Shown here: positions 4,015 through 39,832 of the stretch, piece after piece | Position numbering within the stretch: position 1 is the first letter of the stretch | How the letters are laid out: each line of letters begins with the position of its first letter | Assembly: GCA_964187785.1 (NCBI GenBank) | Contig: OZ076409.1 | Coordinates: forward strand, 58,034,001 to 58,098,000 | Origin: Amphiscolops sp. MND2022 | Taxonomy: Eukaryota | DNA length: 64,000 nucleotides | Direction: 5' to 3' | Made by a program: the position numbers and the translations under genes | The notes under the pieces: generated by a model | What the model was told of the DNA's origin: nothing | Databases searched by the model: none | The model's input: only the letters and a program-made list of their open reading frames with translations

Positions 4015-4027
4015 TTATACTTAATAA

Positions 4028-6272: not shown

Positions 6273-6284
6273 TTATTAAAAAAA

Positions 6285-7803: not shown

Positions 7804-7826
7804 TTATTTATAAAAAATTGTTATAA

Positions 7827-8743: not shown

Positions 8744-8801
8744 TTTTCTACGTAGTTTTGCAGAGCTTTCGCGGAGCTTTCGCAATAAATTTTGATTATA
8801 A

Positions 8802-10048
8802 ATGAACACAGATATGTTTTCTTTAAAAAATAAATACACTCTTGAAAAACCTATTCATAAAATTGATTTTATTAAATATAGTCCAAGTAGTTTAGCGACA
8901 GTCAATAACGCAAACTCGAAAATAAGTGTCAGTTTGCCAAGAGAAGATGCATACATATGTTTACAAAATAGTTTCATAAGTCTAGAATTTGAAGTACTTA
9001 AAAACAATAATACAAGAATTGTTGATGGTGATGAAATAAACTTGGTTAACTTTGGGCCAATCTCTCTATTTAGTGAAGCCAAATTAACATTTTCTAGTGG
9101 GAAACACCTAGAAAAAGTTGACAATTTGCACTTGATTTCTTTAATGTATAAACTTCTAACAAGCACTAGTCAAACTTCCCAGTTATTGTATGGGTTTGAA
9201 GAAAGTACTACTATCAGAAGACAAGAACTAACAAACAACAAAAATGAGAAAGGAACCTTTTTTGTGAGAATAAAACTAAAAGACTTGTTTGGATTTGCTG
9301 ATCAAGAAAAAATAACTTATGGGTTGGGCTACACTCTTACACTCAAACGGAACGCTAACAATGACGCGATTTTAGGAAGCGTTGGAGTGGATGCTGCAAA
9401 AGTGGATATTAAAGACATGGATTGGTATATTCCACACTATGTTCCTGGTATCGAAAACCAACAACTTGTCATGGACCAAATTCTAAATAAAGATCCAACC
9501 GAATTGAGTTACACGGAACGAATTATTTTTAGAAAAGATGTTAACCCGAATAGTTCGTGGACATTTGAATTAGGCAACGCAGGCGGCAGTAGTGGAATAG
9601 AATCACCAACTTTTGTGATTGTTGGATTTCAAGCTAGAAATAAAATTGATTCTCAGGTTCATGATAATGCAGTGTTTGACCGGTTGCCAATTAGTAATGC
9701 TGTTTGTAAAATAGGATCAGAAAAATATCCCGATGATGGGATAGAATGTGACTACGACGGCGACAAATATGATCAAGCATACAATGAAATTGAAAACTTT
9801 ATCACCTACATTCTGAAACTAGCCTAATCAATCCATTTATTGATTTGAACAAATTCAGAACAAATTATAATTTGTATGTATTTGACCTAAGCAAACAAAA
9901 AGATCACATTGCGAGTCAACCAATCCGTTTAGAATTTAAATTTAATGCTGCTTTAGGTGTAGATGAGTTCATTGCTTATGCATTAGTTCTAACCCCAAAA
10001 CCAATAAGTATTAGTAGTGATGGGCAAAGGCATTTTGATTTGATATGA
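8802..10048 (+). pseudogene. Polinton major capsid protein (double jelly-roll), frameshift near 9800
   Basis: About 410 aa, beta-rich. PTFVIVGFQ...FDRLPISN...IGSEKYP, then LYVFDLSKQ...IRLEFKF...AYALVL, as in Polinton major capsid proteins. Confidence 0.85.
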
Positions 10049-10199
10049 TAGGAATGATGAATTATAATGTGATACCTAACGTAATGTTATAATAATATAC
10101 CAGATGATGATAATAAATGATGATAATAAGTGATGATAATAAATGATGATAATAAATGATGATGTAAATGATAATAAAAGATGATAATAAAAGATATTT

Positions 10200-13100: not shown

Positions 13101-14062
13101 TAATATGAATTGGTGTTAAAACTGCTCCCGTGAATTCAAAAACATTTACGTTTAAATTATTCAAGTTTTCGAACTTGGGAATATCTTTAGTTTTCATGGG
13201 GAATTCTAAACCATTTAAAATGAGTTTGTTTGTGTGTTCTGAATAACATGATGTTCTTTTTTTTATGATCCTCAACGGGAAAAAGGTGTGCTAGGATGCA
13301 CCACAAAAAGCAAAATTGATCAGCATTTTTTATATTCATAATTGATTTATTAGTCTTATATTTTTCTGGCAACTCAACCCACGAAAAAGCTTGAATATCA
13401 TTAACTTTATAAATTTCTAATATAACATTGACAATACCATTTAACACAAAACCTGGTCCTCCTAATTGTTCATCATCTAATTTCTGCATTAATGAATTAT
13501 GAACATTTAGGTTTGTGCCGAAGGTGCTTTGTATGTGATTGTAATTAAAATCTGATTTACCCATTTGTGAAATACAGCTTCTTCTCCGTTGATGTATTTC
13601 GAAAACAGCTAAATAACTCAATTGGAACTCGTATCAGGGAAAGTAAATTTTATTTAGTAAATCATTAATCTGTTCTTCAAGATGATTTGTTGGATTTACT
13701 CTCAGTTTAATGTATGTTTTTTCATTCACAATTATTTCTACTCCATGTAGTGTATTACCAAATGTGTTTTTTGTAGCGTTGTTTTTACTTCTTAACGTGT
13801 GAATTTCACTTAGGAAATGTCTTGAATTACTTATGAATTTACCACAATCTTCACACCAAATTTGTGTAGCTTCGCGTTGTTGTTTGGTTTTGTTTTTATG
13901 TTCATCTGAATTTAGATGATTAGACTTGTCAGACAATGGCATAAATGTATTACATTTTTTACAATAATATTGATTTAATTTTTGTAAATGTTTTATTGAC
14001 TTTAGATGATCAGATTTGTAAGCTTTTTTATAATCAGAATTACAAATACTGCAGTTCTCCAT
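10200..14062 (-). pseudogene. Protein-primed family B DNA polymerase with N-terminal zinc fingers and endonuclease VII-like insert; multiple frameshifts
   Basis: Six fragments carry VYADFEC (exoI), VRDHDHLTGKYRGAAHNRC, FFHNFSGYD (exoII), YIDANNLYGWAMSQ, KLMNNAFFGKT and YMDTDS. CxxC...H...H repeats in 13634-14062. Confidence 0.95.
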
Positions 14063-14159
14063 TTATTTATAATAAATTTATGAATTTAATAGCAGTATAT
14101 TTTTCAATTATTAGTGTTAATTTTTATTTTATTTTTCATGTTAAAATTGAAGAAATTAA

Positions 14160-14821
14160 TTATAAAAAATTGTGTGGTTTAAGTGGTATTGTTGGTGGTG
14201 TGTGTGAAGCTACGTTGGCTGTCGCGTGTGAAGCTACTTGTGATTTTGTATGTGATTTTGTGTGTGAAGCTGCGTTAGCTGTCGCGCGCGAAGCTACCTG
14301 ATAATTTTCAAATTGAGTCACAAATCGGTGATATTCTTTTTCATCTATATGATTATCTTTTAGGCTAGTGACATAAAGTTGTCTAAAGTCGTCAAGAGTC
14401 TTCTGAATAATAGTGTACTTAAGTTTATAATTTTGCTCCTTTTTTTCAAATAACTGGAACAAATTTTAACAACTCGTGCAGTGATTGGAACAACTATAAT
14501 GCCCACACCAGTAATACTTAGTGAGATTGATGCTGAAGTTGTTCCAATCACTATAATGCCATCGAGGGAGTTAATCAGGTTTTTTATTAGCTTGTATTTG
14601 GTGTATTTTTTCTTAGATTTCTTTTCTTCCAATTCATAATACTTCATCATTAGACTAATGTTTTGAATAGAATTATTGAAGCTATTTACTTTTTGTAATT
14701 CGTTTTGCAACGCGCTTTGCAATCGCTTATTTATCATTGATTCTACATCATATGGTGCGGAGGGGGGAGCCGTTGGGGTCAGGGAGGGATAAAGTTTTTG
14801 TTTGAAAATATTATTAATCAT
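14160..14821 (-). pseudogene. Polinton membrane-associated coiled-coil protein, frameshift near 14465
   Basis: Two overlapping ORFs: basic coiled coil, hydrophobic IIVIGTTSASISLSITGVGIIVVPI, then SLKDNHIDEKEY. Confidence 0.6.
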
Positions 14822-15612
14822 ATAAAATGAAATTTAATTCCGTCGGTGTTAATTTCATTCTGTGTTTCATATCAACAAGGTCTTTATAGGAATCTTTTTT
14901 CAATGAATCCAGAATTGATTGTCTGGTAGAATATTCTAAATCAGACAGATAATATTCACCATCTGAAGAAGGTTTTGTTTTTCCATATTCTTCCTTTAAA
15001 TAAGATTCACTGAAAGTTAGATAGTTTGCAAAAGCTTGATCTTTATTGGGAAAAGAATCGAACAAACCTTTGTCATAAAGCGGTTGAATTATGTTGTTAG
15101 TTATAGTAATTTTTTTTTGATCTAGGATATTAAGAAGATTATTTATTTCATCTTCAGTTAAAATCATTCCAGCTCGACCCACCTGACTCATAAACTTTAA
15201 GTTAACATTTCAAAACTATTGTTGTGTATTAAATTTAGTACCTCATTTACTAATGCAGTTCTTTGTTCGGTGAAAGATTTTTTCATACTTTGTTCTAACT
15301 TACTTATGGTTTTTGAAAGGTCTGAAAACTGGGAATAAATATCATTCATTAACTTTGTGTTTAATAAAACATTTTGAACTTCCTGTGGGTCTAGTGTTTG
15401 GTGTCTAGCGTGTTCGCGTCTAGCATTTTTTCTTCTACTTGATTTTCTATGTCATTTTCAAAATCGCGTTGCAAATCTTCTTTTAATTTGGAATGGGTTA
15501 TTTGGGCTAATTTTTCTTGACTTTTTATCATATCTTTTAGCTCCTGATATTCCCTCAGTTTTAGCTGTTCACTAGAATAACCAAACTTATGAAGAGATGG
15601 AGTTTCATACAT
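14814..15612 (-). pseudogene. Polinton hypothetical protein(s), fragmented
   Basis: ORFs 15391-15612 (ATAAATG start) and 14814-15191 lie next to the right TIR. Confidence 0.45.
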
Positions 15613-15691
15613 TTATTAAGTCGAAAAAGTTTAAAAATACAAAACTCATAGACATGCCCACTTGAAAATTTTTGTTGGTTGGCCCGAATCG

Positions 15692-15917
15692 AAAAACCAT
15701 TGTTTTGTGATAACTGGCGTAAACTGCTTAAAATCAATGGTTTTGGCGTAGCTTCGCGGACTTTTAATTTTTGGGGATTTGCAGGGCTTCGCGGTGGCCC
15801 GAATCAAAAAACCACTGATTTTAATGATATGTTTTCTAAAAGTACTTAAAATCAATGGTTTTGAGGACTTTTTATTTTGGGGTTTTTGTGGCCCGTCTCG
15901 GGATTTCCCATACTACT
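15692..15917 (-). repeat. Polinton right terminal inverted repeat (~226 bp)
   Basis: Reverse complement of 1509-1735; ends ACTACT. Confidence 0.95.
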
Positions 15918-20604: not shown

Positions 20605-21387
20605 TCAATGATAGCTCAGAAACTCCAGAGCATGTTTCGTAATTCCAACAGCCAGAGCTCCGACATATAATACGAACATGACTCGGTCTATCAACTGCGA
20701 CAGCAACTTCCAACATTTGTATTCCTTCTCGGTCTGACATGTTTCTTCCTTGCACAAAGAGGATCCATCGTTCGATTTTTCCATTTGCTTCTCTGTTGGG
20801 TTGTCATGAACGTTATGATTAGATATTCCACCCTTTTGGCGTACATCATGTCGTTCATTCCTGCAGTTAGTCCTAGCGTTCGGGTTGCGCTGTTCTTCGG
20901 CATCCGTTTCCGGTCTCTCAGCCGGGACTTCCCATCCTCTTCTAGTCTCATGGACCGATCCGGCCATCATGGCATTTTGAATTTGAGGCAACACTTGACT
21001 ATTTATAGCCTCATTGATGGCCCTTTGGATCTGTGAACTAACATTATTAAGCATATCGTCCATCTCTCTCGAGATCCTAGAATTTAATTCGCTTGACAAC
21101 CTGTTTATCTCTGCAAGTGAGTTTGCTTCAGCTGAGTTTTGGCCCAAGTCGGCGCTTGTCCTGGGTTCATTGTTCCTACAATTAGAATATAGGCTTTCGT
21201 CCTCATTCTCTTGATTGTCGCTTGCAACACTATTCCTCCTCCTAGCTGAATTACTATCTAAACTCCTTTCTCTTTCAATCCCGTTAAAGTGATTGTTTCC
21301 TAGCATTATATCTAGGTTTTCAATATCCGAAAGGATCTCTAATCCTCTAGACTTTCTAGTCTTCTTCTGCTTTCTCGTTGTAGGCAT
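20605..21387 (-). other. Chimeric ORF: LTR-borne Gag N-terminus (195 aa) fused in frame to the host channel C-terminus with M4
   Basis: First 195 aa match Gag. Junction CAT GAC A|AC CCA reads HD-NPTEKQ...IDRVMFVLYVGALAVGITKH. Confidence 0.7.
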
Positions 21388-22727
21388 TGAGACTAAACCG
21401 GGTTGAAGAATTATATTAATCAGGACCGGAAAACAGTAATTGTTAACAGATTGTTATCAAGTTGATTGTGAGGAGCTTTTCGAAAATTGTGTCTACTCAA
21501 AGGAAGTAGCTCCTATATATACTCCCTTGGGTGGGAAAAGCATGGTAGTAACTTTAAAAAATGTCATAACTACATTCCTAAAGCACCTGATCAGATCATA
21601 TACGTTCAAACATCAAAGTGCCGCTGAATTGTAGTAGCAAGGTCACGCGGCCGTTTAAATTCCTGCTTTGATGGGATTGAGAGGCATTCAAATAGCACGC
21701 GTTACTTCAAACAACATCTACTATAATATTTGCACTGCTGGTATTTGGGGAATGTCAGCTATCCCGTGCCGGCACGTGCCCCAGTAGTAAGCTAAACAAA
21801 CTTACATCAAATAACGTTACATGCATAATACATCTACAAATTGCATGTGTTAATTGACAAATGAGACCGGACTGGTCTTTCGGGCAAGTATTTGAAGCAC
21901 CAACACACAACTGGTGTTAATCATATCAACCGATCTGGAGGACTACATAACTGTTTGTAACACACTCATTACTGTACATGTCATTTAGAATGCACAAAAC
22001 AATCATATTGACCATCTGAGTAATAAATTGAATGGGTGGCCTAAATCGGCCATTATCCGGATAGGTATAGCATCAGGGGAGGGAAATTAGGCAAATGGCC
22101 TTATTCGGCTAAGCATCAGGGGAAATGAAACAAAACACTAATTATCCAACGTGATCATTTAACAAACACAGAAACGTAATTAAGCTACTCATTAATACAG
22201 TATAGCAGCGTCCACATCATTATCTTTTCGTTAGCAACTTATGGCCGAAACCGGCCGTTTGACTCAAGTTCCGTTTAACAAAGGCGGAATTCAGTTATGT
22301 GGCCTTAACCGGCCATTAATTAAATACAGCACAAGTATTGTTCAAATGGATGAATGTGATTGGTTAGCACGACTGCAGTAAGTTATATCGCCGAGAAGGG
22401 ACGTTTTCGCACTTGAACACGTTTCCTTCTCGCGATTAACTTGCTCTCTTATTGTTTGCTATAGCATCAATACAACTTCGCAATTTAATTCAGCTATTAC
22501 AACAACGAACTGATTTGGCTAATCCCAAATCGTAATATTAACAGACTAATTTGAACATCCAATATAAGTGATCAAATAAAATAAATACAAACAAAATACA
22601 TGATGTAAACGGTTTCTAAAGTTTTAGCAGTTTTATTCTTAAAAAGTTGGCAGTGTTCCGGGTATGACTTCTTGGTTGTTGCTTGTTGTCGTAATCATAG
22701 TGCCGTCACAGGCGGCAGCCTGCGACA
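20802..22727 (-). repeat. 3' LTR (1926 bp)
   Basis: Direct repeat of 35295-37220. Minus strand TGTCGC...ATGACA. Confidence 0.97.
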
Positions 22728-23424
22728 CTGCGGGTGTAAGGAAAAGAAACGAACCTGCATTCAACCCGTTTTCGTAGGCTTCCCTTCTCAGCTTTGTTAT
22801 GAATTCTGGCTCATCTCTCGGTGTAGATCTGTCCATGTACCAATCCACTCGCTGTTTCTTGATCGCATCTACTGAGCGGCCACAGACCATACATCCGGTA
22901 TAACGTGTTTCGCTCACATTCTCGTACGGCTTCGTGTTTTGAATGTGATATGACGCCCTGAATGCAGAGTCAGCTACTACTAGCGGGGTATCCATAGACG
23001 GTCCTCTCTCGTGAGGGGGCGGTGATAGAGGTGACTCCACGACAGGAAGTAGAGTTTTGCAGAGCTCTATCCGAGATTTCCCTATCTTCCTCGGGGGAGC
23101 ATAACACATTTCTCTATCAAAATATTTGTGATCCAACTTCGGGGTCACGTCCATCTGCGTCTGCCTGGAACTTGGGCCAGCTTCTGTATCTTCTTCTTCT
23201 TCTTCGGGTAATTCTACAGTCATAATGCGGCCCCCTATTAGCATGGGGCTGGATATTACCTCTTTCTCGATCCTGGCCACCAGTTGTTCCGTATCAGTGG
23301 AATAGTCGGTTTCCCAATCCGAGGCTTCGCTCTCACTACTAGATATGTAGATGACAGATTCGTTAGATTCGTCAGAATCATAATCCATGTCGAATAATTT
23401 CCTTGCCAGGTTGTACTTGCTCAT
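22639..23424 (-). CDS. Accessory ORF (261 aa; acidic N-terminus, CxxC) ending inside the 3' LTR
   Basis: Intact ATG-initiated ORF. A homologous ORF crosses the LTR boundary of a divergent relic at 39294-39832. Confidence 0.75.
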   Translation of the reverse strand: MSKYNLARKLFDMDYDSDESNESVIYISSSESEASDWETDYSTDTEQLVARIEKEVISSPMLIGGRIMTVELPEEEEEDTEAGPSSRQTQMDVTPKLDHKYFDREMCYAPPRKIGKSRIELCKTLLPVVESPLSPPPHERGPSMDTPLVVADSAFRASYHIQNTKPYENVSETRYTGCMVCGRSVDAIKKQRVDWYMDRSTPRDEPEFITKLRREAYENGLNAGSFLFLTPAVSQAAACDGTMITTTSNNQEVIPGTLPTF

Positions 23425-24338
23425 AATGAGTTTTTTAGCTATTTTGAAGCTTGGGGAGGCAACTAGTCAGAATCAAAGTTTGAGAAAGAATGAATTCAAC
23501 AAATTTGAGAATTTAGCCGACTCGGGCCTTTTACCGACAATTCGTTTTTGGCGGTTGAATCTTCGGTAAATTACCCTAATCCGACATAAACATTCCTGAA
23601 TGGAATTTCATAATTAGTCGGCCACCTTTGATATACCGATGTTTACCCGTCATCAACACCATCAGCTTAAGAGGTGTGAACGACGCTTGAGCTGCTAGCC
23701 TCAATTCTCTCCATCTCAAGTGGGTAATTAACGGGTCGCTTGAAGGCTATTAACGACACGCGCCGTTAAATTCTTTCAACATGGCTTCAGCCAATCAGAG
23801 TTAAGCTCTGACAAAATGAAAAATTAAGTAATAAAATGGCGAAAATAATAAATCAAAATAATTCAAAATGGCGGAAATAACAATTTGAGTAACTATAATA
23901 ACGGAAGTCCTAATTAGGCTAACAAACAAAACGGAACGAGGTAATACAGTGAAATGGGGTAAACGGCCGTAATTGGCCAATAATTCCATGAGTTGTAAAT
24001 AATGAAATGATCTTAGTACATTTCGCTGGCAGACTCCATGTACAGAATAAATATGTAAATAATCCCATAATATTAGTCTGGTAATAATCTTCAGCCACGA
24101 ACTCCAATCCTTCAATTCTTTATTTTGAATTCCAATTCAATTCCTTTTATTTTAATTGCACTTTCTCTTCCATATTCATTCGATCGGTCTCCATCTACAA
24201 ACTACCCTTTCTGTCTCTAATCTCTCCCGTCAGTCATCTCTTCCGACTATCCCTGTTTCTCCCTTTAAGCCGGGTCCGGCCAATTTCCTTCGCGGCAGCA
24301 ACCCGATTGGAACACTTCCCTTTTAGTCTCAGCTCAGA

Positions 24339-27300
24339 ATGTCTTCAACTGAAGGTTGGTTTGTTTCTTTTTGAACTCAAATTTAACTTGATCAGGGCTA
24401 AATTCGTTCACAAAATGCTTCCTGTTTTCATCAATAAACGTGTGATAACACGTTTCGTTCAAATTTTCAAACACTTCCGGAAGTTTTCTAATGCGGTAAA
24501 ATGGATTTTTTCCAAGGAAGCTCACCGCCAAATTTCATCTCATTCTGTTTAGAAAACCAGAATAATGACGAATCACAGATTCGAAACACCACTTCTTCAA
24601 ACAATCTTGCCGAGGTTCCTCAACGCCCGCTCCCGATTACCATGCCAAGGCCTAGATCCGATCTAATTGCTCCGTCTTCTCTATCTTCATCCAACATCCT
24701 TGCTATGCCAACAGCAGCGGTAACAGGAGGAGCCCAAGATACAGCTACTCCCTCTCCTTTCAGTGTCGACAGTGATTTTGATGTCACGGCGTACGCTGAT
24801 GAGAAAGTTTTGCTTCTCGAACGGGCCCAGGAACAGGAAGAGAGACAAATTGCCAAGAGTTCTGAACTCGGGGAACAGGAGGTTGAAGAGAGTGTCCCAG
24901 AGGGTTCACTTACGGTTGGGAACGAAATCCGATCTTCTACCTTGCCCTTCCAAACAAGCACTCCAACCAAGGATTTGCCCAGTGAGTCTGCAAGGCTGAA
25001 TTTATCGCAACTAGAAGCCGGTCTCACAGTTGCTCCATCTACCCAGACGGAATTGCCAGAATTGTTGACAACTCGCGGAAATACTACCAACATGTCAGCA
25101 GCATCATTCCTCCACCATGAGACTGACGAAAGTTCGTCTATATGTGATGCCCCCAAATTGCCGACTGGAGTCGCGGACATAGTATATTTAGACGACATAA
25201 CAGGGACTGAGGAAGCTGGTGACACATCCAGTCAGGCAAGTGGACCAGCTCTATACAGTTTCCAACCAGTGGGAGGCGCAGCAGAAACTGCAGGGGAGTC
25301 ATCAGTTGACACTCCTATTCCTCATCCGGATAACTTGCGTCCGTCAACATCAACGTCTGCAGAGCAAGGTTCTGGCATCAGGGAGCTCTCTGGTCGCAGC
25401 CGGGCTATTTTAAAACAATACTTCGATCAGGATGCTACTACCATCAACTTCCCCCTCGGCCATAGAACGGTGGCTTTCACTGAGCCACAAGTGTACCATC
25501 TTTTGAGGGTCCTTACAGATGAAACCTTGAAGATGTCTTTCACTGCCATGGAACAGATGGTGATCGGGGCAGTTCGTGGAGCGCCGGTTACTTCCAGTTC
25601 TCGAACTGGTCATTTCCGAAACAGGCCAAGAGCCCAAACTCCCGGACCTGGACTTCATAGTGATTCCGAGGGCAGTTCGCATTCTGAAAATTTCCCTGAG
25701 TCAGGAACTGATACGTCTGCCGGGTCAAGTTCGGAACAAGAAGATAGAGGACTGGACTCTTCCAACAACACTGATAGCTCTGGGGAGATGGCTCTAATTT
25801 CACAGGCTTTTAAGGAGCCTTTCAGACCTGCTTCAACTTCCTGTGGGACTACTCAAGATGATCCCCCTCAAGCAGGTTTCGAATCAGCAGATCAGTCTAG
25901 TCTTGATGCTACCCTTTCCGAGTTACGAACTCAAACTTCTCCTGCTCCGCCCTTAGCTTCGAGTTCGGGTAAAGTGCCAAAACGTAAGCAACGGAAACAG
26001 ACTCGAGGTATCCCTATGAAAGAGGAGTTCTTCTCTAAAATCGGATGGACGCGCTCGTTCATTTCTGGACCAGCAGACCCGCTCCATAATCCTTATATGG
26101 TATGGTGCCATATATGCAAAAAGAATCTTTCTGTGAAGACGAAGGGCACTTTGGAAATTCTGCGGCACCACAGGACGGAGAAGCACCTCCGAAAAGATCA
26201 AAGATGGCGTTACGAGCACCTCAAGAGTGTTCACCCCGTGTCCGGAAAGGTGCAACATCGAGTGAGAGGCCGCAATGGGAAGATTCTCTCAGAGATTGAG
26301 TTGGCTAAGGAGATGCGCCACTTTATGCACGTTGAGTTGGTGGACATCGGAGAACGTTTCCCTTTCTATGACGATTTCATAAAAGGAACAACCACCACAC
26401 TCGTCACCCCTGAATCAAGAGCTAAGACACAGATCCAACTTATTGGGAACTTCATACAGCAGCACGGGGATATTGGAATGCTCCGCAAATTGTGGTCCCA
26501 AATAGGCTCTTTGACTAACTACCAGTCCAGCTACTGTGACTTCGATTGGGGTGAAGAAAGAATTTCGGTAAGTTCTCTATTGGGTTTGTACACTGCTTGT
26601 GGTAGGCCAAAACCTTCCAAACATTTCGTAATTCTCCTTTTCCTTTTCAGGCCATCTTCCAGCACATCTTCAATTGTGCAATGAACGATTTAGCAAACCA
26701 GATTGCTACCACACAGCACTTTGCCATCGAATTTGAGGATCAGGGTGTGAACAGACTCATGTCTGTCAAATTCTGGAAAGACAACACCCTCTGCCGAGTC
26801 TACGTGTGTCGAAGTGGGCTTCCTTCCTCTGACCTTACTGGAGAGTTGGGGTCCCTCTCTCGACTCCTCTCAGTAGTATCCACTAAAGCCGATATAGTCG
26901 CCTGTTCCGGATGTCCTGTCGAGCTGATTCAGACTATCGACAACAATGTTTTCTTCCCCCGGGCTGTCCAGAGTTGCTTTCGCTTCGAGCATCTGCAGCT
27001 CCAGAAGATGATGCACAAGCCCACTTTCAGTGTGTTTGGCAGAATAGACTTCTTCTCTGTTCTGAAGTGCCTCGTAGTTTCACTTGGAGCAGCTTCCAGT
27101 GAGGATTGGGCCCTGCAATCCCCTGAACTGGCACGAGTTAGTATATTAAGTTCAAACATGAAGCGTAAAGGGTTAGGGGGTAGGTTCGGACAAAAGACAA
27201 TTCGGGTTCGTTTAGGCTATCGATACCTGCAAACTGGACTTGCCGAGTTTACCCAACCTCTGTCGGGAACTTGTAAAACATTGGAAGGCGATCCGGCAGT

Positions 27301-28745
27301 ACCTGACGTCCCATACTCCACACCAGGGAATGCAGGGGGTCCACAATCAAGTGCAGAGCTTCGAGTGGTCTCTCATCTGCGACTCCTTCTTCATCGTCAA
27401 GTTGGAGTTCTTTCAACGCATAATCAGTGATTGTGAGTATACCGCTACATATCCATATTGGTACTATAAGACATTATCAGAATGATCCTTGATCCTTGAT
27501 TCCTCGGGCCACTAGCGCAGTAGGCATATCGGTATGGGTTTATGTAGACGTTTTGTTCTTTTCATGGTCTTGTCCTTTGTATTTCCAGATGTCGCCAGTT
27601 TCGTTGCCAATCTGTTGGGCCGACGAGATGCAACATTTTTCCTCTGTGGAGAAGTCTGCCGATTCATCTCCAAGTTATGTGCCAGATGTTACTTGCCGGA
27701 AACCATCCCTCTCGAGAATTCGTGGTTCCTGCTCCTCAATTTCAACGTGAGCGACGGGAAGTTCATCAGCGAGGAGGAGTTCCTTGTCCGACACCGGCTG
27801 ACAACTCGGATAGCTACTGCCAGCAAACAGTGTGCCGATGTTGTCCATTTGAACAAGAAATCGGAGAAAGCCGCCATTGAGAAGACAGCTGCAGAGACAA
27901 CCAGCAGTTTCGTCAAAGAAGGACTGCAGTTTATTCAGTACTTGGTCAAGCAGGTCCTCAACCAAGCCGGTCTGAGCTCCGAGGTGATCAAGGGGTTGGC
28001 CGCCTTTGATCCTTTCGTCCTCTTCAAGAGGCCGAGTGAGGTCGGACTTCGTCATTTCGAGGTATTGTACTCGACCTTCCAGCTTCGCTCCTGGGTCTCC
28101 GGTGAGAATGAGAACATCTGTCGAGATGAGTATTTGGCTTTGTTAGATCACCTGCGAGTCAATTATCCTCCAGATTTCGATTTCAATGAAAATTCCCCCG
28201 ACCTGATAGACTTTCTGATGCAACTCGAGTTTTTTCAAACTCATGAGCACATTTTCCATCTTTTCAAGCTGTGCTGCTTGTGTTTGACAGAACGAAGTCT
28301 CCAATATCCCCCAGTATCTTTCGGGAGTGTTAACACTTCTGGACACCGAGGCCGTTTTGCTGACCTTATAGAGCCCTGTCAGAGTTACCTTTCTTGCGTG
28401 CCTGACTCCATTCTACATTGTTGTTCTGACGCTAATTTAGAAAAGCTTTCAGCCCTCAGTTCTTCCTTCGAGCGTTCCGCTTTCTCCCCCGACTATGATC
28501 CATGGACCTTTGTGGATGAGTTCGGGAGGTCCAAAATTTACAAGAGCCTTCTTGCCTCCTATAAGGTCGTCACTGCTGTTTCTCCCCCTCGGGCTGTTCA
28601 TCTGGAGACAGGAATTGCCTCCTCCGTGCCGGACGATTCTGCCATAAAGGTGCCCTCCAAGAAGCAAAGGAAGCGAGCAGGTAGCAGCAGTTCTACAATT
28701 TCGTCCACTTCCAAGAAGGCTGTTCAAGGGTCCTCTAAAGACTAA
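24339..28745 (+). CDS. Antisense spliced cargo gene of the retrotransposon: BED-like zinc finger plus degenerate hAT-like transposase fold (~1296 aa)
   Basis: Exons 24339-24354, 24553-26567, 26651-27136, 27216-27432 and 27589-28745 total 3891 nt. All four introns are GT-AG with matching phases (1,0,0,1). Zinc finger WCHIC...RHHRTEKH. An alternative unspliced start exists at 24501. Confidence 0.8.
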
Positions 28746-28977
28746 ATGTACATATGTATTTATGTACTTTCAGACTGTAAACTTTGTTCATTTCTCTGTT
28801 TCATATTTATTTTCATTTTGTTCTCTGTTGTCTTGATTTTCTGATCCCGTATTTATTTCCTTGTAAGGGATCATTCAAATGTCCCATTATTTATTCAAGA
28901 AATACTGCTGCATGGGACCGAAAAGATAAAAAGAATGAAAAGAAGAGAATTCCCATTTTCGGGAAGAAATTCAATTC

Positions 28978-31900
28978 TTAGTATCTGAAGTCTTCTGAGT
29001 AGTTTGGATTTGGATTAGGCCTGAGATTATATTTCCCTCCTCTAGGGCTCAGACTTTCATTTCTAGCATCTTTTTCAGATATTTCGGGCACGATAATATC
29101 ATCCCCTCTTTTCGGAGAATTTTGTGCATCGTTGTCATTCGATGAATTTCTTTCTGGAGAATTTTCATTCCCGTTTGGTCCATTTGCCATATCCGGCGAA
29201 GATTTTTCTTGGGTTTTTGGGGAAACGGCCGGATTCGGCCAATCAAATTCTTCGTTTCTAATAGCTCCAGTAGCTTCATTTCTTTTAGTGACGTCATCAT
29301 TTAAGCGGACATTCCGGCTGTGTGCCGTATTGTCATTATTCGTTTCTCGCGTGATTATATAATCCGCGTCACTCTCGTTTGCGTCATTGTTGATTTGTTC
29401 CGTACTCGGCTGTTCGCCGTTCGGTGAGCTGGCCGGAATAGGCTCGCTGCCTCGTGTGTCTAGCTGTTCGCCAAAGTTTGTTTCCCACGTTATTACATAC
29501 AAGTCGTCTTGCGGAATGATTATTTCGTCATCCGGCTGTAGACGCTGTTCTCGGAAATTGTCCTCAAGTGGCTGATTTGGAACAAACTTTTTGAGACGAA
29601 TTCGATGCAATATCTGCGTTTTATTTGTATTAAGCCTGCGGACAATGTAATTCTCGTTAGGTAAGGTCTTCTGGACTATAAATGGTCCAACCCAACGATA
29701 ATCTTTGAATGGAATTTTTGATCCTTGATGATCCGCTTTCGGCTGTAATACAAAACAGTAATCGCCCTCTTTGAGTGGGGCGGCTTTTGCTTTTCGGTCA
29801 TAATACTCCTTATATTTGATATATGACTGCATGATGTTCTGCTTAGTTTTGTCAATAAGGAGTTTTGTCCGGTTTTGGATTTCTTCTGCGAATTCAGTAG
29901 TCGGATGGATTTGCTCGTTTGGATTTGTTCCAAGCTTGTGATCCAAGATGTTGTATGGGATTCTTCCATGGAACACTCTTGTCGGTTCACATCCGATACT
30001 GGCATGGTAACTAGTATTGTGATTCAGAACTGCTAATGGCAAATATTTGTGCCATTGTCGGCGATATTCTCCACATGCCATTTTCAAGTTTGTTTTCAAT
30101 GAGGCATGTGTGCGCTCCAATTTCCCGATAGTTTGCGGGTGCTTTGTCGTTGCACATTTTAGGGTAATTCCTAAAATTTGGGTAATTTCTGCAATAATCG
30201 TGGAAGTGAAGGCAGTTCCTTTGTCTGTAATGAGCGTTGTCGGTAAGTAGGAATGTTTGGTCATAATGTCAATGAGTGCTTTGGCTACATTGATCGCTGA
30301 TGCGTCCGTGAGAGGGTAAGCGAATAAATATCTAGAGAAAACATCAATTGCCGTTAGGACATTTTCATACCCTCCGCTTGGGGGAAGATTCGGCAATAGG
30401 TCAATTTGCATGGCGTCTTCAGGTCCAAGGTCCCATTCGGGCAAATTTAGTAGTTCAGGCGTGATCGTTGCATTAGGGACTCTTTTGTCTCTGGCGCATT
30501 GCTCACACCCTTCTACCCACTTTTTGACATGTTTTGCCATGTTGGGATAATAATACCTTTGTCTGATTTCCTGCAACATTTTTGAAATCCCGGGATGTTT
30601 ATGCGCTGTCCCGTGAAGGGAGTGGAGCAGTTCCCGAAGTAGGTGTTGCGGGAGCAAAATTTGATGGTATTTAACATTCCCTGTTTCATCAAAATATTGC
30701 CGTGTTAGGATTTCGTCCTTTAGTACAATTCGTTCCAGATTATTTGCATAGTGTCTATATCGAGCGTCCTGTTGCAGTATGTTTTCTGAGTAGTCTTCGT
30801 GAAGGAGTTTTGCCTTCAATTGTTGTAATACTGCATCCTTGGATTGCTCGATAATTATCTGGTTTGTTTTCCTCAATCGGTCTTGTATTTCAGGTTGTTG
30901 TTTGGTTAAGTTGGTGGAAAGAGTTTGTATTGTAACTGTAGGGTCTTCGATTACAGGATTGTTCCTGATTGCTTCTTTCCTCGCCCAATATTGTTCTTCG
31001 GTCTCGTCGTCGTCATTGGTGTAGAAGATTTGTTCTTCCTGTGAGACTCCTGCTGATTGGACGTTTATTTCTATTGGTAGCGTTTGTACATCTTCTCGGA
31101 TTTTCATTACTAATTTGTCCTTTGGGTCTGCTTCCAGTCGGGACAAGTAATCCGCTGCCGTATTCTGTGCTCCTGGGATGTGTGCAATGACAAAATTGAA
31201 CTGAATTACATAGTCGCATGCGTTCCACAGAGCTGGGGGTACGATTTTCGTCTGAAAGAATCTCGTTACGGCTTTGTTGTCGGTTAGAATTATGACCGGT
31301 TTCGGTGCTCCCCAAAAAATATGCCCAAATTCTTTGAATGCAAAATAAATCGCAAGAAATTCTTTTGCATAAATTGACATTTTTATCTGGGCTGGGGTGA
31401 AGGTTTTTGAACCATAAGCGACCGGTGCATATGATTTGCGGATTGACGTGAATTTCTGACTCGGATCATCTTCAATGAGTACTGCGTATCCTGCAGCTCC
31501 AAAACTTGCATCTGTCATGAGTGCAATCTGCTTGTTGGGAATGGGTTGTTGTAAGGCTAAGTCGCAACATTTGTCCAGAGCTCGGTTGATTTCCTCAAAT
31601 TGCTGTACCAATTCTTTTGATACTAGGACTTTTTCGTCACTTTTCAGCATCTTGTAGAATGGGGCAAGGCGTTCGGACAGTCTTGGAACGTAGTTTCGGT
31701 AGTAGTTCAGGAAACCCAAATATCTTTGCAATGCCTTTTTCGACTTTGGAAATTTGGTTTTTTCTAGAAAATTCTGAACGTTCTGTCGTTGAGGTTTGAC
31801 GCCTTGTGGAGTAATCGTTCGTCCAAGGAAATCAATTTCACGGGCACCAAAATGACATTTGTGCATCGTCAATTTAAGGCCTGCTTCCTGAATGCATTTG

Positions 31901-34180
31901 AAAGTTGCTCTTAGGTTAGCAATGAGATGGTCGGCGTCGTTGGCGGCGATGCCGATATCGTCCACATACTGGGCGCACTGATCCGCTTTGATGACTTTGT
32001 CGAGGTATTCCCTCATGAAACTCGAGAATGCGGATAGTGACCGGCTAAGGCCTTGTGCCAAGCGTCTGTAGGCGAATGTGCGACTGGCAAAATTGAAAGC
32101 CAACATTTCGATTGAGCGTTGGTCGGCCATTGGTAGGCAGTGGTATGCCTGCGAACAGTCTAATTTGCAGAACAGTTTTTTGCCTGCCAGGTGTTGGGCA
32201 GCATCAACTAGTGTGCTGACAGGATGATTATTGTTTATATAATCATCAGAAATCAGGTTGTTGATTTTTCTCAGGTCGACTAAAAGTCGCAGTTTCCCAT
32301 TTGGTTTCTTTTGGGCGAATATTGGGCTTGCATACTTTGAGAACGGTAGAGTGGTGATGATGCCATATTTGTGTAACATGGCTAATTCGACGAGGATGTC
32401 CTCCTTTAGATTGATAGGAGCTGGGAGACTTTGACTATAGGCTGGGGAATCGTCCTTAGGCGTCAGTTTCACCTTAAATTCCTCATTCATGCCTATATCG
32501 AATCGGTGTCTTGCGAAGATATCGTGGAATTCCACTAACAGTTCCTCTATTTTCTCCTTCTCTTCAGGAGTAAGGGTGGAATCTTTCCAATCGAAGTTTT
32601 CCAAGAATTTTGCACGTGATTCTTCATCTTTGGTGGGGTCGAGTGTCTCCAGTTCCTGTAAGGCCTGTAATTCTCGGAGGATTCGTTTCTGTATCGGTGT
32701 GTGTTCCTCAGGGTTTCCAGGATTTTCTGGAGTTGGGAACCAATAGTTTTCAGAATCTTGTAGATTTTTGTTGGTCTTGATGAGACTGCTGACGTAATGG
32801 GCCGCCTGCTCTTGGTCGTTTTGCAAAAGATGCCAGGTTGATGCCGGGTCTACCGGTTTAACATGTTTCATTTGTTCTGGCGTCATGACTGAGAAATTGG
32901 CAATATGGAGTCCCTTTTTGAGTTTGTAAGGGTGGTCTGTGAAATTGTTCACTGGTATCAATATATTGCCCTCATTCAGAGTGACCAAAGCTGGGCAAAA
33001 TGTGATGTCGCCTTCTTCGTGTAGGAGGTCGCTCGGTTGCAAGATCCCGGTGACAGCATTCTCAGGGTACAACAGGGAATTGGTCCTAATTAGGACTTTA
33101 TCATTTGGCGGAATGGTTTGAGGTAGGGTTGAGAATTGGTTCTAACACGTTTGAGTATTTATGATCAGCTGTTTTGAGCTGCATTGAGAAGAACGGGAAA
33201 TTCAGTATGCCTTGTCTCATGTCCAGAACTGTGTGGTTTCGTTGAAGGAACATTAGGCCGATAATCGGACCTGTCAGGTGTTCCATGACTATAAAAATCT
33301 CATGAAACTCAATGTCGCCAACTTCAAATTTAAGTTCTATTGTGCTTTTGGGCGTTTCCAGTTGCCCATTAGCGACCATGATTTGGAAATTCGGAGGCGG
33401 ACCTTCCCGGATAACAGATTGTGGAGATAAGAGTCGAATTTTCCGGAGGTCCATTTCTGGAATTGCACTGGACAATGCTCCAGTGTCAATGAGTCCATCT
33501 ATGGTCAGCTCCCCAAAGTCCATGGGGAAGTACAACATGCGCTTCTTGCATTTGAGATTGATGTTGGTCGACAAGGGTATACAGTCTGGTTCACCGTCTC
33601 TGGTGATTAGGACGTTCTGGAATTGCTTCTCGTCTAATAGTGATTGTGGTGTAGGTTCGGAGTTGTCCTCATGGGCCTCGGTCCCCAATGGGTTCGGGAA
33701 CACTGGGTGGTTAGTACCATCATTCATCTGCCAGTTTTCAACTAGTGCTCTGGTCTTTTTATTGTGGGTAATTGGAGGGTTCTCATGGACTGTTCTATTG
33801 TAGTGCTCGATGTCATCTAGGACATATTGGAATTGTAGTAGTTCCTGGTTGTAGATCTCTGTGTCCCAATAGGGATCTCTGCCGTAATCTGGATCTATGT
33901 AGGTAGGATTGTAATTGTCAACCAGGGGAATGGGCCTGAATCGGCTATTGAAAGCAGATGTATAGTCAGGGTCCCATACAGGAATTGGTTTTTGGAACAA
34001 ATGAGTGTTATTGTATGTAATGATGGTAGCTTTTTCCATTTGTTGCTGCCAGACAACAGAGGGATAGCCCATCAATTGTTGATTGTATTGGTGGAAAGTT
34101 TGCGTTGGAGGGTCCGATCTGATGTATTGTCGGACAGATATCAGTTCGTTGTATTGGAGTCGTGGCGAAGTTAGTTTTTT
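28978..34180 (-). CDS. pol: Pol polyprotein (protease, dUTPase-like spacer, RT, RNase H, integrase) with one frameshift near 33120
   Basis: LIDTGA, KLDCSQAY, YVDD, TDASF, TDNKA, HHCC (H...HKH...CEQC), QIDL/TDKG/LER triad, WVGPF. ORFs 33101-34075 and 28978-33072 are in different frames. Confidence 0.93.
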
Positions 34181-35880
34181 GACTCATCGTTGGAAGATGA
34201 GGCCTGTGAGTTGGAAGATGTTGACTTGTGTTGTGGTTTCTGCGCTTTTGAATTGGGTTTTCCGTCATTAGCGTCGTCTGGTCTGGTGCGTTTGGGTTTG
34301 AGATGCGCACCAGCGCCTTGCCAGCATCTTTCTTCCGGGTGGTTCTTTTTACCACAAGTGCCACACTCCGGATACGTCTTTTTCTGAGTCTGTTTGCCTT
34401 GTTGGGCATCTTTTTCCTTTTTCTTCTTCAACTTTTCGCAGTCCTTGACCATATGGCCCTTTTCCTTGCAATAGTTGCAGGTTATATCTGACATTTGCCC
34501 AGTAGTTAGAGGAGTCTTGGATTTTGTCGAGGAGGTCATTGTGGCCATTGGTAGGTCGTCTGATTCCTCTAGTGCATTGAGTTCTAATTCTCTCTCCAAA
34601 TGAGCATCTATTTCGTCATAAGAGCCATTTTCGAGTCTAGCCATGTTGACAGACCGCTTCAGTTTTGGTGGCAGCTTTGCGTAGAGCAAGCTGTCAATCA
34701 TTTTCTGGGCGTGATCCCCAAATGCTTTTTCTGCCCCTTGATTTAGTTCTTCAAGGAAATCTGGTAATTTCATCGTATTGGGATCAAAGACCAGGCGGTG
34801 CCATTTATGCTTGGCAGTCGCCTGTGATTCGGGCTTGACGTATTTTCGTCTGAAGATGATTAATACGTCTTCTAAAGTTTGTCTGTTGCTGGAGCTGATG
34901 TTTCTGAAGGTTTGAAGAGCATTCTTTCTCAATAAAGAGTGGAAGTGATTGATCTTCATTTGCTCAGTCATCTCTGGCTGCATCTTGATCATCGTATGGA
35001 ACAGGTCCTCAAACAGCTCGAATTTTTCACTCTTGCCATCAAAAGTCATTGTGTTTGAGTTGACCGGGCGTATAGTGAGTTGTTGGGCTGTCGGCCTATT
35101 CTGCATCGTTGTCAAGACGTCTGCCAATCGAGTAATAGGGTCGGTTTGGGCAGCCGGAGCATTTCTCTCTTGCGCTGGGATCGTCGTGTCAAGGTTGATG
35201 TCCTCATAGGACCTGTCGAGATGGTTTCTGGATGAGACTCGTCCCGTGAGAAACTCGGGAACTTGAGGTGGAGATTCGTTGTCTCCTGTCACCATGTCAT
35301 GAACGTTATGATTAGATATTCCACCCTTTTGGCGTACATCATGTCGTTCATTCCTGCAGTTAGTCCTAGCGTTCGGGTTGCGCTGTTCTTCGGCATCCGT
35401 TTCCGGTCTCTCAGCCGGGACTTCCCATCCTCTTCTAGTCTCATGGACCGATCCGGCCATCATGGCATTTTGAATTTGAGGCAACACTTGACTATTTATA
35501 GCCTCATTGATGGCCCTTTGGATCTGTGAACTAACATTATTAAGCATATCGTCCATCTCTCTCGAGATCCTAGAATTTAATTCGCTTGACAACCTGTTTA
35601 TCTCTGCAAGTGAGTTTGCTTCAGCTGAGTTTTGGCCCAAGTCGGCGCTTGTCCTGGGTTCATTGTTCCTACAATTAGAATATAGGCTTTCGTCCTCATT
35701 CTCTTGATTGTCGCTTGCAACACTATTCCTCCTCCTAGCTGAATTACTATCTAAACTCCTTTCTCTTTCAATCCCGTTAAAGTGATTGTTTCCTAGCATT
35801 ATATCTAGGTTTTCAATATCCGAAAGGATCTCTAATCCTCTAGACTTTCTAGTCTTCTTCTGCTTTCTCGTTGTAGGCAT
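34171..35880 (-). CDS. gag: Gag polyprotein (569 aa)
   Basis: TFDGKSEKFELFEDLF capsid-like region and two CCHC knuckles (CNYCKEKGHMVKDC, CGTCGKKNHPEERC). Confidence 0.92.
   Translation of the reverse strand: MPTTRKQKKTRKSRGLEILSDIENLDIMLGNNHFNGIERERSLDSNSARRRNSVASDNQENEDESLYSNCRNNEPRTSADLGQNSAEANSLAEINRLSSELNSRISREMDDMLNNVSSQIQRAINEAINSQVLPQIQNAMMAGSVHETRRGWEVPAERPETDAEEQRNPNARTNCRNERHDVRQKGGISNHNVHDMVTGDNESPPQVPEFLTGRVSSRNHLDRSYEDINLDTTIPAQERNAPAAQTDPITRLADVLTTMQNRPTAQQLTIRPVNSNTMTFDGKSEKFELFEDLFHTMIKMQPEMTEQMKINHFHSLLRKNALQTFRNISSSNRQTLEDVLIIFRRKYVKPESQATAKHKWHRLVFDPNTMKLPDFLEELNQGAEKAFGDHAQKMIDSLLYAKLPPKLKRSVNMARLENGSYDEIDAHLERELELNALEESDDLPMATMTSSTKSKTPLTTGQMSDITCNYCKEKGHMVKDCEKLKKKKEKDAQQGKQTQKKTYPECGTCGKKNHPEERCWQGAGAHLKPKRTRPDDANDGKPNSKAQKPQHKSTSSNSQASSSNDESKN
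34174..34180 (-). promoter_or_regulatory. -1 ribosomal frameshift slippery site A AAA AAC
   Basis: Heptamer sits immediately before the gag stop. The -1 frame is open (KLTSPRLQY...QQLMGY) into the protease ORF. Confidence 0.8.
35281..35294 (-). promoter_or_regulatory. Putative primer binding site
   Basis: TGGTGACAGGAGAC directly follows the 5' LTR terminal CA. The priming tRNA was not identified. Confidence 0.7.
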
Positions 35881-37220
35881 TGAGACTAAACCGGGTTGAA
35901 GAATTAAATTAATCAGGACCGGAAAACAGTAATTGTTAACAGATTGTTATCAAGTTGATTGTGAGGAGCTTTTCGAAAATTGTGTCTACTCAAAGGAAGT
36001 AGCTCCTATATATACTCCCTTGGGTGGGAAAAGCATGGTAGTAACTTTAAAAAATGTCATAACTACATTCCTAAAGCACCTGATCAGATCATATACGTTC
36101 AAACATCAAAGTGCCGCTGAATTGTAGTAGCAAGGTCACGCGGCCGTTTAAATTCCAGCTTCGATGGGATTGAGAGGCATTCAAATAGCACGCGTTACTT
36201 CAAACAACATCTACTATAATATTTGCACTGCTGGTATTTGGGGAATGTCAGCTATCCCGTGCCGGCACGTGCCCCAGTAGTAAGCTAAACAAACTTACAT
36301 CAAATAACGTTACATGCATAATACATCTACAAATTGCATGTGTTAATTGACAAATGAGACCGGACTGGTCTTTCGGGCAAGTATTTGAAGCACCAACACA
36401 CAACTGGTGTTAATCATATCAACCGATCTGGAGGACTACATAACTGTTTGTAACACACTCATTACTGTACATGTCATTTAGAATGCACAAAACAATCATA
36501 TTGACCATCTGAGTAATAAATTGAATGGGTGGCCTAAATCGGCCATTATCCGGATAGGTATAGCATCAGGGGAGGGAAATTAGGCAAATGGCCTTATTCG
36601 GCTAAGCATCAGGGGAAATGAAACAAAACACTAATTATCCAACGTGATCATTTAACAAACACAGAAACGTAATTAAGCTACTCATTAATACAGTATAGCA
36701 GCGTCCACATCATTATCTTTTCGTTAGCAACTTATGGCCGAAACCGGCCGTTTGACTCAAGTTCCGTTTAACAAAGGCGGAATTCAGTTATGTGGCCTTA
36801 ACCGGCCATTAATTAAATACAGCACAAGTATTGTTCAAATGGATGAATGTGATTGGTTAGCACGACTGCAGTAAGTTATATCGCCGAGAAGGGACGTTTT
36901 CGCACTTGAACACGTTTCCTTCTCGCGATTAACTTGCTCTCTTATTGTTTGCTATAGCATCAATACAACTTCGCAATTTAATTCAGCTATTACAACAACG
37001 AACTGATTTGGCTAATCCCAAATCGTAATATTAACAGACTAATTTGAACATCCAATATAAGTGATCAAATAAAATAAATACAAACAAAATACATGATGTA
37101 AACGGTTTCTAAAGTTTTAGCAGTTTTATTCTTAAAAAGTTGGCAGTGTTCCGGGTATGACTTCTTGGTTGTTGCTTGTTGTCGTAATCATAGTGCCGTC
37201 ACAGGCGGCAGCCTGCGACA
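35295..37220 (-). repeat. 5' LTR (1926 bp)
   Basis: Direct repeat of 20802-22727; only three substitutions seen by eye. Followed on the minus strand by TGG. Confidence 0.97.
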
Positions 37221-38078: not shown

Positions 38079-39337
38079 TGTGATAATATTCCTCATCTGA
38101 GCCCTCGTTTGAAACTAACGTTGCGTGGAAGACTAGTTCGTTACAAAGGCTAAGCAGGATGTCTTAAATCCTTCATTTCAGAGGCCTTAAGAGGATAATC
38201 CTCGTTTTTTTGAATATTAAATTTCAATGCTTGATGCTTGAACTTCTGTAGACTTATCTGTTTTGGATCCCGATGCTTGTGTCTTTTGGGCTTCATTTGT
38301 CTCAGATTTAGGATGAGTAACTGTGGAAACACTTTTGTTGGTTCTGACCTCTTTTAGAATGGCTTCCAACTTGTTATCCATTTCTTATCTCAGTTTCATG
38401 ATTCTATCGTTGTTCTTTTGCTCAATTACCTGTGTCCAATATTTGGATTTAATTGCTGATTTGACTGGGTTCATTCAGTTAATTTTCTAAGAGACCATTA
38501 CCTAACCTTTCTTGAACATTAACTTTAGTATCAGTTAAAGTCGCATTACCTGTATTAGGTGTCTCAACTTGGGTATTATTTGTTTATCTGTCAGGAGAGG
38601 GTGTTTATAGTCTCCTAGATCGTCTATTTCCTCTATTTCCCATTTTTCACAAACGAAAGCAAAGTTTTGCAGCAAAAAAACAGTCGAATGTTCTGCAAGT
38701 ATTCAGTGAAACAAGGCTCTTTTGAAGAATGAAATTGTTTAGAAGAGTTCACAAATTGGAAAGAGAAAACTTTTTCATGAATCAACGGCATTTGGCGCGG
38801 GTTGACTCTCGAATCAATCGATGATTTGAAGTTTATACAGCTAAAAACACATGACATAGAGTATTCGTTATTGATCGAAGCGTAGGATGCCGTATAGTGA
38901 AAAAAAAAACGCATAGTGACGGGTATACGTCGGGTCGCGAACCGCATAGTACCGCATAGTGGTACTGTGCAAAAATATGATGACAAAAGCTCGTTAAGTC
39001 TCGAACTGCACAGTGACGTATAATCACTAGTACATGTGACCATTAAGTAGCATCACAATCGACAAATTACGTTATCTCTGATTCATATGACTCATTAGGA
39101 TAATTGATGGATGTGCGGTTTTACTTCTCAATGCAATTCAGTGTTCACTTTTTAACGCGAGAGAAACTTATTTAGAACAAAGTTTATCCAAAGCAATACT
39201 CTTGCATGATATCATTAAAACGAACAACGGCGGATAAAAGTGTCGCATTATCTTTCTCATAGTTTAATTTGACTGCAGGTTTTGTTCGCCTTCTTAGTGT
39301 TGCTCCCTGGTTGCAATACAGCTGTTAGGTTGTGACA
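38079..39337 (-). repeat. Diverged 3' LTR of a related Gypsy family containing a gag stub
   Basis: Minus strand TGTCACAA...TATCACA. Colinear similarity to 50763-52106. Contains a decayed MGNRGNRRSRRL gag-like start (~38643). Confidence 0.65.
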
Positions 39338-39832
39338 GTCCTGCAACCTTGAAGGTAAACGCGGATGCCTCAAAACCATCGATGAACGCACGGGACCTGA
39401 CTCCCCTGTCGCTCACTGTTTTGTCGTCGTAGGCAGTTGCAAGTAGAAACTCACTCAAAATCTCCGAGGCATTTTGGTCGTATGTTTTGCTGCACCTTTC
39501 GCAAAATCCCTCAACGTGTTGCGTAAACATTGGGTTGAGTCTGTATAGATGCCACTTATTGACGGGCATGAGAAGAAGATTAGTACTGTGCGTGTTTTGG
39601 GTCACAAGTAGTTGCAACTGCTTTCACTCAATTCCGGTTTAGCACCGGCCTCCGCTTTAGACTCCTCAATGACGATGCGCTCCTCCGAGGTCAGACCAAG
39701 AGGCGACTCTAGGTACACTGGAGGTACTGGCATCCGATCCAGTCGCGCCCTCCGATCCTCCTCTGCTGATAACGGACAACACGACTTATCTAATAGCGAC
39801 CTCTGTGTCTTTATTCGGAACTTCTGCTCCAA
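39294..39832 (-). pseudogene. Decayed homolog of the 261-aa accessory ORF
   Basis: GFCERCSKT...RSRAFIDGFEASAFTFKVAGLSQPNSC aligns by eye with TGCMVCGRS...RREAYENGLNAGSFLFLTPAVSQAAAC. Confidence 0.65.

Follow-up and report, generated by a model that had tools for sequence, protein, structure and literature searches.

The intact Ty3/Gypsy element in the 64,000-nucleotide stretch of Amphiscolops sp. MND2022 DNA analysed here (the window) has no polypurine tract (PPT) ahead of its 3' LTR, as an earlier note on this DNA had claimed and as its sequence bears out. At the start of the 3' LTR the minus strand reads TTTCTTTTCCTTACACCCGCAG/TGTCGC (here and below, the slash marks the LTR start). The loss of purines is real and specific in the family to which the element belongs (family A), and the junction site is still under nucleotide-level selection. 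The C-rich motif at this site, RCACCCGCWG, is likely, with a rough probability of 0.65, still to be the RNase H-generated RNA primer of the plus strand in this family. The earlier note had extended the absence of a PPT to the entire lineage, and this fails because a PPT is present, in the same ORF register, in sister families C and D; families C, C5 and D carry a G-rich PPT of 6-8 nt in the same codons. Its proposal of non-canonical priming is best read as a putative non-canonical primer-site sequence at the canonical place, in family A and, less so, in families B/E. The main features of the element are as follows.

20802-37220, minus strand: intact Ty3/Gypsy element of family A, 16,419 bp (16.4 kb)
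20802..22727, minus strand: 3' LTR, 1,926 bp, TG...CA, a direct repeat with 35295-37220
22639..23424, minus strand: accessory ORF, 261 aa, between pol and the 3' LTR, its final 89 nt (stop included) inside the 3' LTR
24501..28745, plus strand: antisense gene region of three open frames with a weak BED-finger match, head-to-head with the accessory gene
28978..34072, minus strand: protease and RT-RNase H-integrase frames (Pfam RVT_1, RT_RNaseH and rve; catalytic motifs located)
34171..35880, minus strand: gag, which begins 586 nt within the 5' LTR and reads through the PBS
35283..35294, minus strand: PBS TGGTGACAGGAG, adjoining the LTR and matching the 3' end of host tRNA-Leu(CAG)
35295..37220, minus strand: 5' LTR, 1,926 bp

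The LTR pair differs by three mismatches over 1,926 bp and is flanked on both sides by the TSD ACCCA. Nothing is unusual in the motifs of the PBS, RT, RNase H and integrase; the PBS matches tRNA-Leu(CAG) over 12 nt, for which ARAGORN calls genes at two of six loci, and the closest PDB match of the pol product is the Ty3 Gag-Pol (E 1.6e-48). The element shows the TG...CA LTRs with TSD, the PR-RT-RNase H-IN order, the Ty3-type RT and the tRNA PBS that define Ty3/Gypsy elements, and a PPT adjoining the 3' LTR is absent from family A and present in sister families C and D. It is classed from its predicted enzymes as Ty3/Gypsy and not as a canonical PPT-primed member. Since gag starts inside the LTR (570-590 nt inside the 5' LTR in families A and B alike) and the accessory ORF ends inside it, each LTR opens with the end of one ORF and closes with the start of another. 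The antisense gene region is matched in 10/10 family-A and 9/10 family-B 3' stretches, with an A-B identity of 24-29% and a weak zf-BED match (E 0.79), and the stretch of approximately 1.08 kb between it and the accessory gene may contain a two-way promoter.

Related elements were sought in the 1.07 Gb eukaryotic genome. Twenty elements of families A and B were fetched, of which 16 yielded an LTR pair and 15 had both ends defined. A PBS is found in all 15, the TSD is identical in 13 and has one mismatch in two, and identity within LTR pairs reaches 100%. Families C, D and E were reached through profile-search representatives; 17 of the 20 elements fetched have LTR pairs and the same PBS type, and among 12 with properly set boundaries the TSD is identical in ten and one-off in two. 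Identity of the RT to that of the window element is 82-90% in families C/D and 67-74% in family E.

The 261-aa ORF was found to run across the start of the 3' LTR, as the earlier note stated, with 89 nt within the LTR and the LTR-initial TG supplied by the Val codon preceding SQ. Counting 55 codons from the first Cys leads to the TG in 99/100 family-A and 50/50 family-B extractions, no residue being demanded at the junction, and the ORF end is locked to the LTR junction in all families. Because the codon count lands on the TG and the TSDs match, the register is real and the element ends are precise. The claim that the CxxC protein is an old, functional component also stands: the ORF is under purifying selection, and its register is kept in five or more families at identities of about 20-40%. 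Among its matches across the genome, 136 of the 146 scored have no internal stop. In the conserved domain of family A (28 dereplicated copies) pS is 0.78 and pN 0.21; pN/pS for the family-A ORF is 0.26-0.33, with 0.33 in the N-terminal part (23 copies) and 0.29 in the LTR-encoded tail, and it is 0.20 in family B (18 copies). A profile search of 1.84 billion representatives returned 302 matches at E <= 0.001, and the ten clusters looked up are unnamed ENA proteins. In this genome the best identity to two representatives used as queries is about 51% for one and 50% for the other, so relatives are present in other assemblies.

At the codons of the family-A motif, sister families C and D bear AGGGGGAG or GGGGAG. 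The junctions read CCAGGGGGAG/TG in family D, CCGGGGGGAG/TG in C5, CCCCGGGGAG/TG in C, AAAAATGCTGGMC/TG in E and AARRRTGCRGGAC/TG in B, and the family-A consensus is RCACCCGCWG/TG. In 278 junction extractions (V/L followed by S/L required at the junction; 13 are places fetched twice), the longest purine run within -15..-1 is 8 in 58/58 of family D, 6 in 34/34 of C, 5 in 31/31 of E, 4-7 in the 54 of B and 1-3 in 101/101 of A. All ten unrelated Gypsy elements of the same genome (about seven families) have runs of 8-12. Exact junctions number 1,078 genome-wide for family A, 1,029 for the D/C5 type, 703 for the B/E type and 344 for the C type, the patterns differing in strictness, and reversed-pattern controls gave none. 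By copy number and LTR identity, family A is not a failing branch.

The BEL element of the window also scores low on this purine-run measure (4). It is BEL/Pao-like (56907-63502, plus strand), with a last ORF (61784-62614) that enters its 3' LTR and a purine-rich but interrupted junction.

Three features surround the family-A junction.

22728..22736, minus strand: C-rich motif CACCCGCAG, frozen, where a PPT would lie (-9..-1); the putative plus-strand primer
22739..22754, minus strand: U-rich stretch 5' of the motif, coding for FLF, the 'pyrimidine tract' of the earlier note
22705..22726, minus strand: predicted 9-bp hairpin at the U3 start (+2..+23), overlapping the codons for SQAAACD

Selection on the nucleotides is seen at silent positions. 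Third codon positions -8 and -5 are invariant in family A (27/27 and 28/28), and entropy at the fourfold sites is 0, 0 and 0.68 at -8, -5 and -2, as against a mean of 1.70 bits at 12 upstream positions, 0.16 at +1..+20 and 1.57 past +20. The codon at -8 encodes T, A, P or L, yet its base is A in 28/28 copies; family B has an invariant T at -8 beneath four different amino acids. The same silent freeze lies across the G-tract of families C and D, with an entropy of 0 at -5 and -2 and of 0 (C) or 0.5 (D) at -8. A frozen island of 30 nt between saturated flanks stems neither from shared ancestry nor from a long recombination tract. Two further regularities are open to a protein-level explanation. 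The T fraction at -27..-12 is 0.37-0.54 in all five families, and the U-rich stretch is explained partly or wholly by hydrophobic codons. A G occupies -4 in 278/278 extractions, in every family, and an A mostly occupies -2; since the -4 G also opens a Gly/Ala codon, a protein constraint is possible.

Two of nine family-A target sites (the 5' flanks of loci L079 and L090) end in GCAG or GCAT, like the final bases of the motif, in a sample too small to interpret.

The predicted hairpin has MFE z-scores of -3.5 in family A, -3.4 in C and -2.6 in D, and about 0 in B and E. Its pair counts exceed those of all 500 shuffles, and its five core pairs are paired in 87.9% over 38 distinct sequences (shuffles 79.5 +/- 1.7). 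Two-sided changes number 21 versus 7.6 +/- 3.3 in shuffles, a count that kinship among the sequences can inflate, and a G-C pair is flipped to C-G between A/C/D and B/E. RNAalifold returned no consensus fold common to all families. The sense strand includes G-U pairs (19 cells), which point to a structure formed in RNA.

In the proposed mechanism, tRNA-Leu would prime the minus strand in the usual way, RNase H would leave an RNA ending at -1, and this C-rich RNA would then prime the plus strand. The ORF would once have contained a short G-rich PPT that later eroded, and the RT would now read the few bases kept (the -4 G and mostly the -2 A) together with the geometry or local structure of the junction; the U3 hairpin probably aids recognition of the site in families A, C and D. 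Since an element copies its U3 end from its own RNA, the RT of another family would still need this junction. It is possible, at slightly less than even odds, that the 3' end of a pyrimidine-rich primer is set by the U3 hairpin and a matched RT and not by purine content, with the families forming a series from eight purines to none in which the polypurine sequence is dispensable. Ty3 RT fails to recognise the PPT junction of HIV, which suggests a fit between enzyme and primer (PMC5371799). Work on the HIV PPT shows that the -4 G matters and that the G-tract is the chief determinant of priming specificity (PMC1802577), so that a C-rich primer runs counter to the best-studied case.

Other origins of the plus strand were weighed against priming from the C-rich motif. 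The strand could start from loose upstream sites, with integrase trimming the U3 end and the frozen motif serving as an end-recognition or processing signal. The silent-site freeze is continuous with the LTR terminus and purine-rich codon runs occur in family A near -132 (mean purine fraction 0.92) and -60 (0.75), both in keeping with such a route. These upstream runs, however, lack silent-site conservation and are absent in family B, and the elements share no fixed position for a purine run of 13 or more. The freeze, moreover, coincides with the textbook PPT location of families C and D, and the PBS abutting the LTR, the blunt-end geometry of Ty1, implies an abutting primer. Loose upstream initiation is thus considered unlikely. 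A fixed upstream or central purine tract was likewise rejected, none being shared between elements. Slightly less probable again is the binding of the junction and hairpin by an element-encoded protein, either the CxxC accessory protein or the antisense transposase-like product, which would protect or position the primer and free its sequence from purines. Both genes are family-wide and selected, the accessory ORF end is tied to the junction in all families and the U3 start is near-palindromic, but the PPT-bearing families carry the same ORF and hairpin, the acidic accessory protein with its SIM-like and SP motifs looks more like a nuclear regulator, and the sense-strand G-U pairs fit an RNA structure better than a site in duplex DNA.

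Priming by something other than an RNase H product (a second tRNA contact, a hepadnavirus-like translocated RNA or fold-back priming) appears improbable. U3 +1..+20 has the lowest tRNA-Leu duplex energy of the windows tested in families A, C and D, but 11-78% of 200 shuffled tRNAs give as good an energy there; pairing at the junction is likewise no better than with shuffled tRNA, the sole exception being one of four junction variants (3.5%), and tRNA-Leu pairing was rejected. The motif has no CCA end, and no conserved complementary, long-range or direct-repeat partner of it recurs at a fixed place in the 13 of 16 elements whose LTR start was located. A role of the junction as splice acceptor, or its conservation solely for the protein it encodes, is more improbable still. 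A pyrimidine run followed by CAG occurs in 83/100 family-A extractions, and the earlier note had remarked on this resemblance, which is incidental: 17/100 of family A lack the AG, among them 16 with the CTG typical of a whole young subfamily, all 50 family-B extractions end in GAC, and families C and D have GAG. As the AG is not conserved, a required splice acceptor is ruled out, and the silent positions are frozen even though the amino acid at -10..-8 varies. Plus-strand priming from the C-rich motif at the usual site is the reading favoured here.

In RT trees, families A, C, D and B+E are cleanly separated, and a grouping of A with C is preferred (SH-aLRT 92; UFBoot 72). The alternatives withstand the AU test (p 0.13 for A+B/E and 0.49, from 2,000 replicates only), and the SH-aLRT tree is a quick one of 42 rows, from which L102 was omitted as too short and in which the root lies on very long branches. 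Other Gypsy elements have a PPT, and any of these trees consequently implies its loss in family A. The B/E junction motif shares little with that of family A. Co-evolution of the RT with PPT loss was considered and set aside, there being no clear signal in either the RNase H or the thumb/connection columns: RNase H has no clear excess of A-specific changes (5/119 columns versus 7 in C and 10 in D), and A-specific columns in the thumb/connection number 10/73 versus 6 in C and 1 in D.

In HIV, the PPT lies within the nef reading frame. An accessory ORF entering the 3' LTR, as here, is described for HIV-1 nef and MMTV sag (PMC12789967); these retroviruses keep a full PPT, whereas the tract here is eroded, and no sequence or fold similarity was found between the proteins. 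A PPT is generally regarded as universal in retroviruses and LTR retrotransposons alike; PMC12789967 states that all retroviruses contain one, and the structural basis of PPT recognition has been called elusive (PMC3362945). With Ty3 and other Ty3/Gypsy elements (PMC5371799), the present elements share gag, the PR-RT-RH-IN order, TG...CA LTRs, a tRNA PBS and a 5-bp TSD, and the purine tract of the sister families likewise abuts U3. Family A differs from Ty3 in having at most three consecutive purines before U3 and in placing the site inside a coding gene, and the LTRs of these elements, unlike those of Ty3, are 1.4-1.95 kb long and hold the gag start. Like the present elements, maize Grande has a conserved extra ORF, gene23, between pol and the 3' LTR, and among the extra 3' ORFs of plant LTR retrotransposons one has its own promoter and a nuclear product (PMC7264820). 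Gene23 is antisense and is not described as crossing the LTR, whereas sense and antisense genes stand head-to-head here, in an animal host. Sireviruses have a conserved stem-loop at the PPT/U3 junction, as here, but their stem encloses a true PPT with one arm upstream (PMC2829016; PMC3601003), while both arms here lie within U3 and the tract is missing. Precedents are known for three of these features: nef and sag cross into U3, gene23 has a promoter of its own, and in Sireviruses a stem-loop forms at the PPT junction. The literature covered, which left out most subscription journals and the Repbase/GyDB entries, yielded no paper describing an active Gypsy family that has a pyrimidine-rich primer site, nor one describing such a series; this is no proof that none has been published. 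Reverse transcriptases that are 82-90% identical use junctions that range from AGGGGGAG to CCCGCAG. Selection has frozen each of these junctions, each occurs in hundreds to a thousand copies, and together they form a naturally occurring allelic series for learning what RNase H and RT read. Annotation tools that demand a PPT will misjudge such elements.

A divergent homologue of the ORF had been proposed at 39294-39832, crossing the start of its own LTR and likewise without a PPT.

39294..39623, minus strand: relic of a family-B accessory ORF, crossing its LTR start at 39337 and ending ...AGLSQPNSC...

The proposal stands in part. The frame is open across 39294-39623 and profiles establish homology, but nothing was matched for 39623-39832. 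Compared pairwise, the window ORF and the relic ORF gave no alignment (tblastn; blastp best E 28). Profiles of families A and B align by hhalign with a probability of 91% (E 1.1e-6; 69 ungapped columns; 19% identity), and cross-hmmsearch gives best scores of 22-27 bits, compared with no more than 6 for shuffles. Among 1,131 window frames the relic comes third with the A profile (E 0.015), behind the element's own two, and intermediate families also tie the two ORFs together. The last approximately 98 codons of the relic (39297-39590) match a natural family-B protein at 62% (E 5e-36). The PPT of the relic is degenerate, not absent, with 9/13 purines; its family has 10/13 before the LTR in 47/50 extractions. 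LTR-like copies at 38153-39337 and 50840-52105 share only 69% identity, no gag/pol match lies between them, and they may not be the two ends of one element.

The accessory protein and its presumed promoter have the following features.

22714..22893, minus strand: conserved domain of a CxxC knuckle and two antiparallel helices (aa 178-237; alignment and model)
23335..23355, minus strand: SUMO-interacting-like motif VIYISSS followed by an acidic/serine run (aa 24-30; regex)
23460..23493, minus strand: predicted internal promoter, Inr TCATTC (A+1 at 23491) with a DPE-like AGTTG at +28..+32, 67 nt upstream of the ATG

The model of the domain has a pLDDT of 77, with helices above 90. Three Cys are nearly invariant, the third falling in the hairpin and in the low-confidence tail of the model. 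All Pfam matches, zinc-finger families included, are below cut-off, no PDB sequence matches under E 0.2, and the Atlas holds no usable match or only ones below 0.9. No fold was matched, the best hits being VIA at Z 5.9 with the first model and Foldseek at E 4.4 with the second. An errantivirus-like env glycoprotein was rejected for this acidic 261-aa protein, there being no Pfam match above cut-off and no signal-peptide or transmembrane segments by eye. The acidic N-terminus contains a SIM-like word, found with a pattern of hydrophobic core and serine/acidic run that we take to represent SUMO-interacting motifs, in 24/28 sequences of family A, 13/20 of B, 14/17 of D, 0/8 of C and 0/5 of E (shuffles <=0.09). 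No contiguous host SUMO frame was found among the six loci read. An (S/T)PxSP word occurs in 27/28 of A, 18/20 of B, 17/17 of D, 7/8 of C and 0/5 of E.

With the Inr and DPE consensus motifs, the pair occurs at the exact spacing in 81/89 family-A extractions, against 1.3 expected from shuffles, and lies 67-68 nt before the ATG in 78 of them; the counts elsewhere are 14/22 in E, 12/46 in D, 3/26 in C and 0/47 in B. The idea that splicing extends the ORF in frame upstream was rejected: the distance from AG to ATG is 38 or 39 nt and the AG is absent in some copies, and for these reasons the motif is taken as a DPE. The accessory gene is tentatively read, somewhat short of an even chance, as a unit with its own Inr+DPE promoter and a poly(A) end in the 3' LTR that would encode a small nuclear SUMO-binding regulator favouring expression of the element. 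An Inr+DPE-like match also lies inside the LTR at 36355 and 21862 (minus strand), 475 nt upstream of the gag ATG; this occurs in one of eight family-A LTRs scanned, and five B/E LTRs have one whose position relative to the LTR end is -721 to -757.

Several other features were observed in the window and genome. At about 1509-15917, inverted repeats of 227 bp bound many AT-rich ORFs with a Polinton/Maverick-type look by eye, including integrase-like, DNA polymerase B-like and ATPase-like frames. Ligand-gated ion channel exon-like fragments were recognised by eye at 37188-37607 (plus strand) and 45289-45726 (minus strand), the 5' LTR end of the window element overlapping the end of the former. 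Unrelated Gypsy families of 12.5-13 kb (loci L223-L228 and L239-L240) have two additional long ORFs downstream of pol, a tRNA-Leu-type PBS and LTRs that end in TTAAA. A large tandem array of tRNA-Leu-like 3' ends, corresponding to the primer tRNA of the elements described here, occupies G000:C8:35589244-35641273 and beyond, with most of 838 pattern matches on one strand at a spacing of about 236-296 bp.
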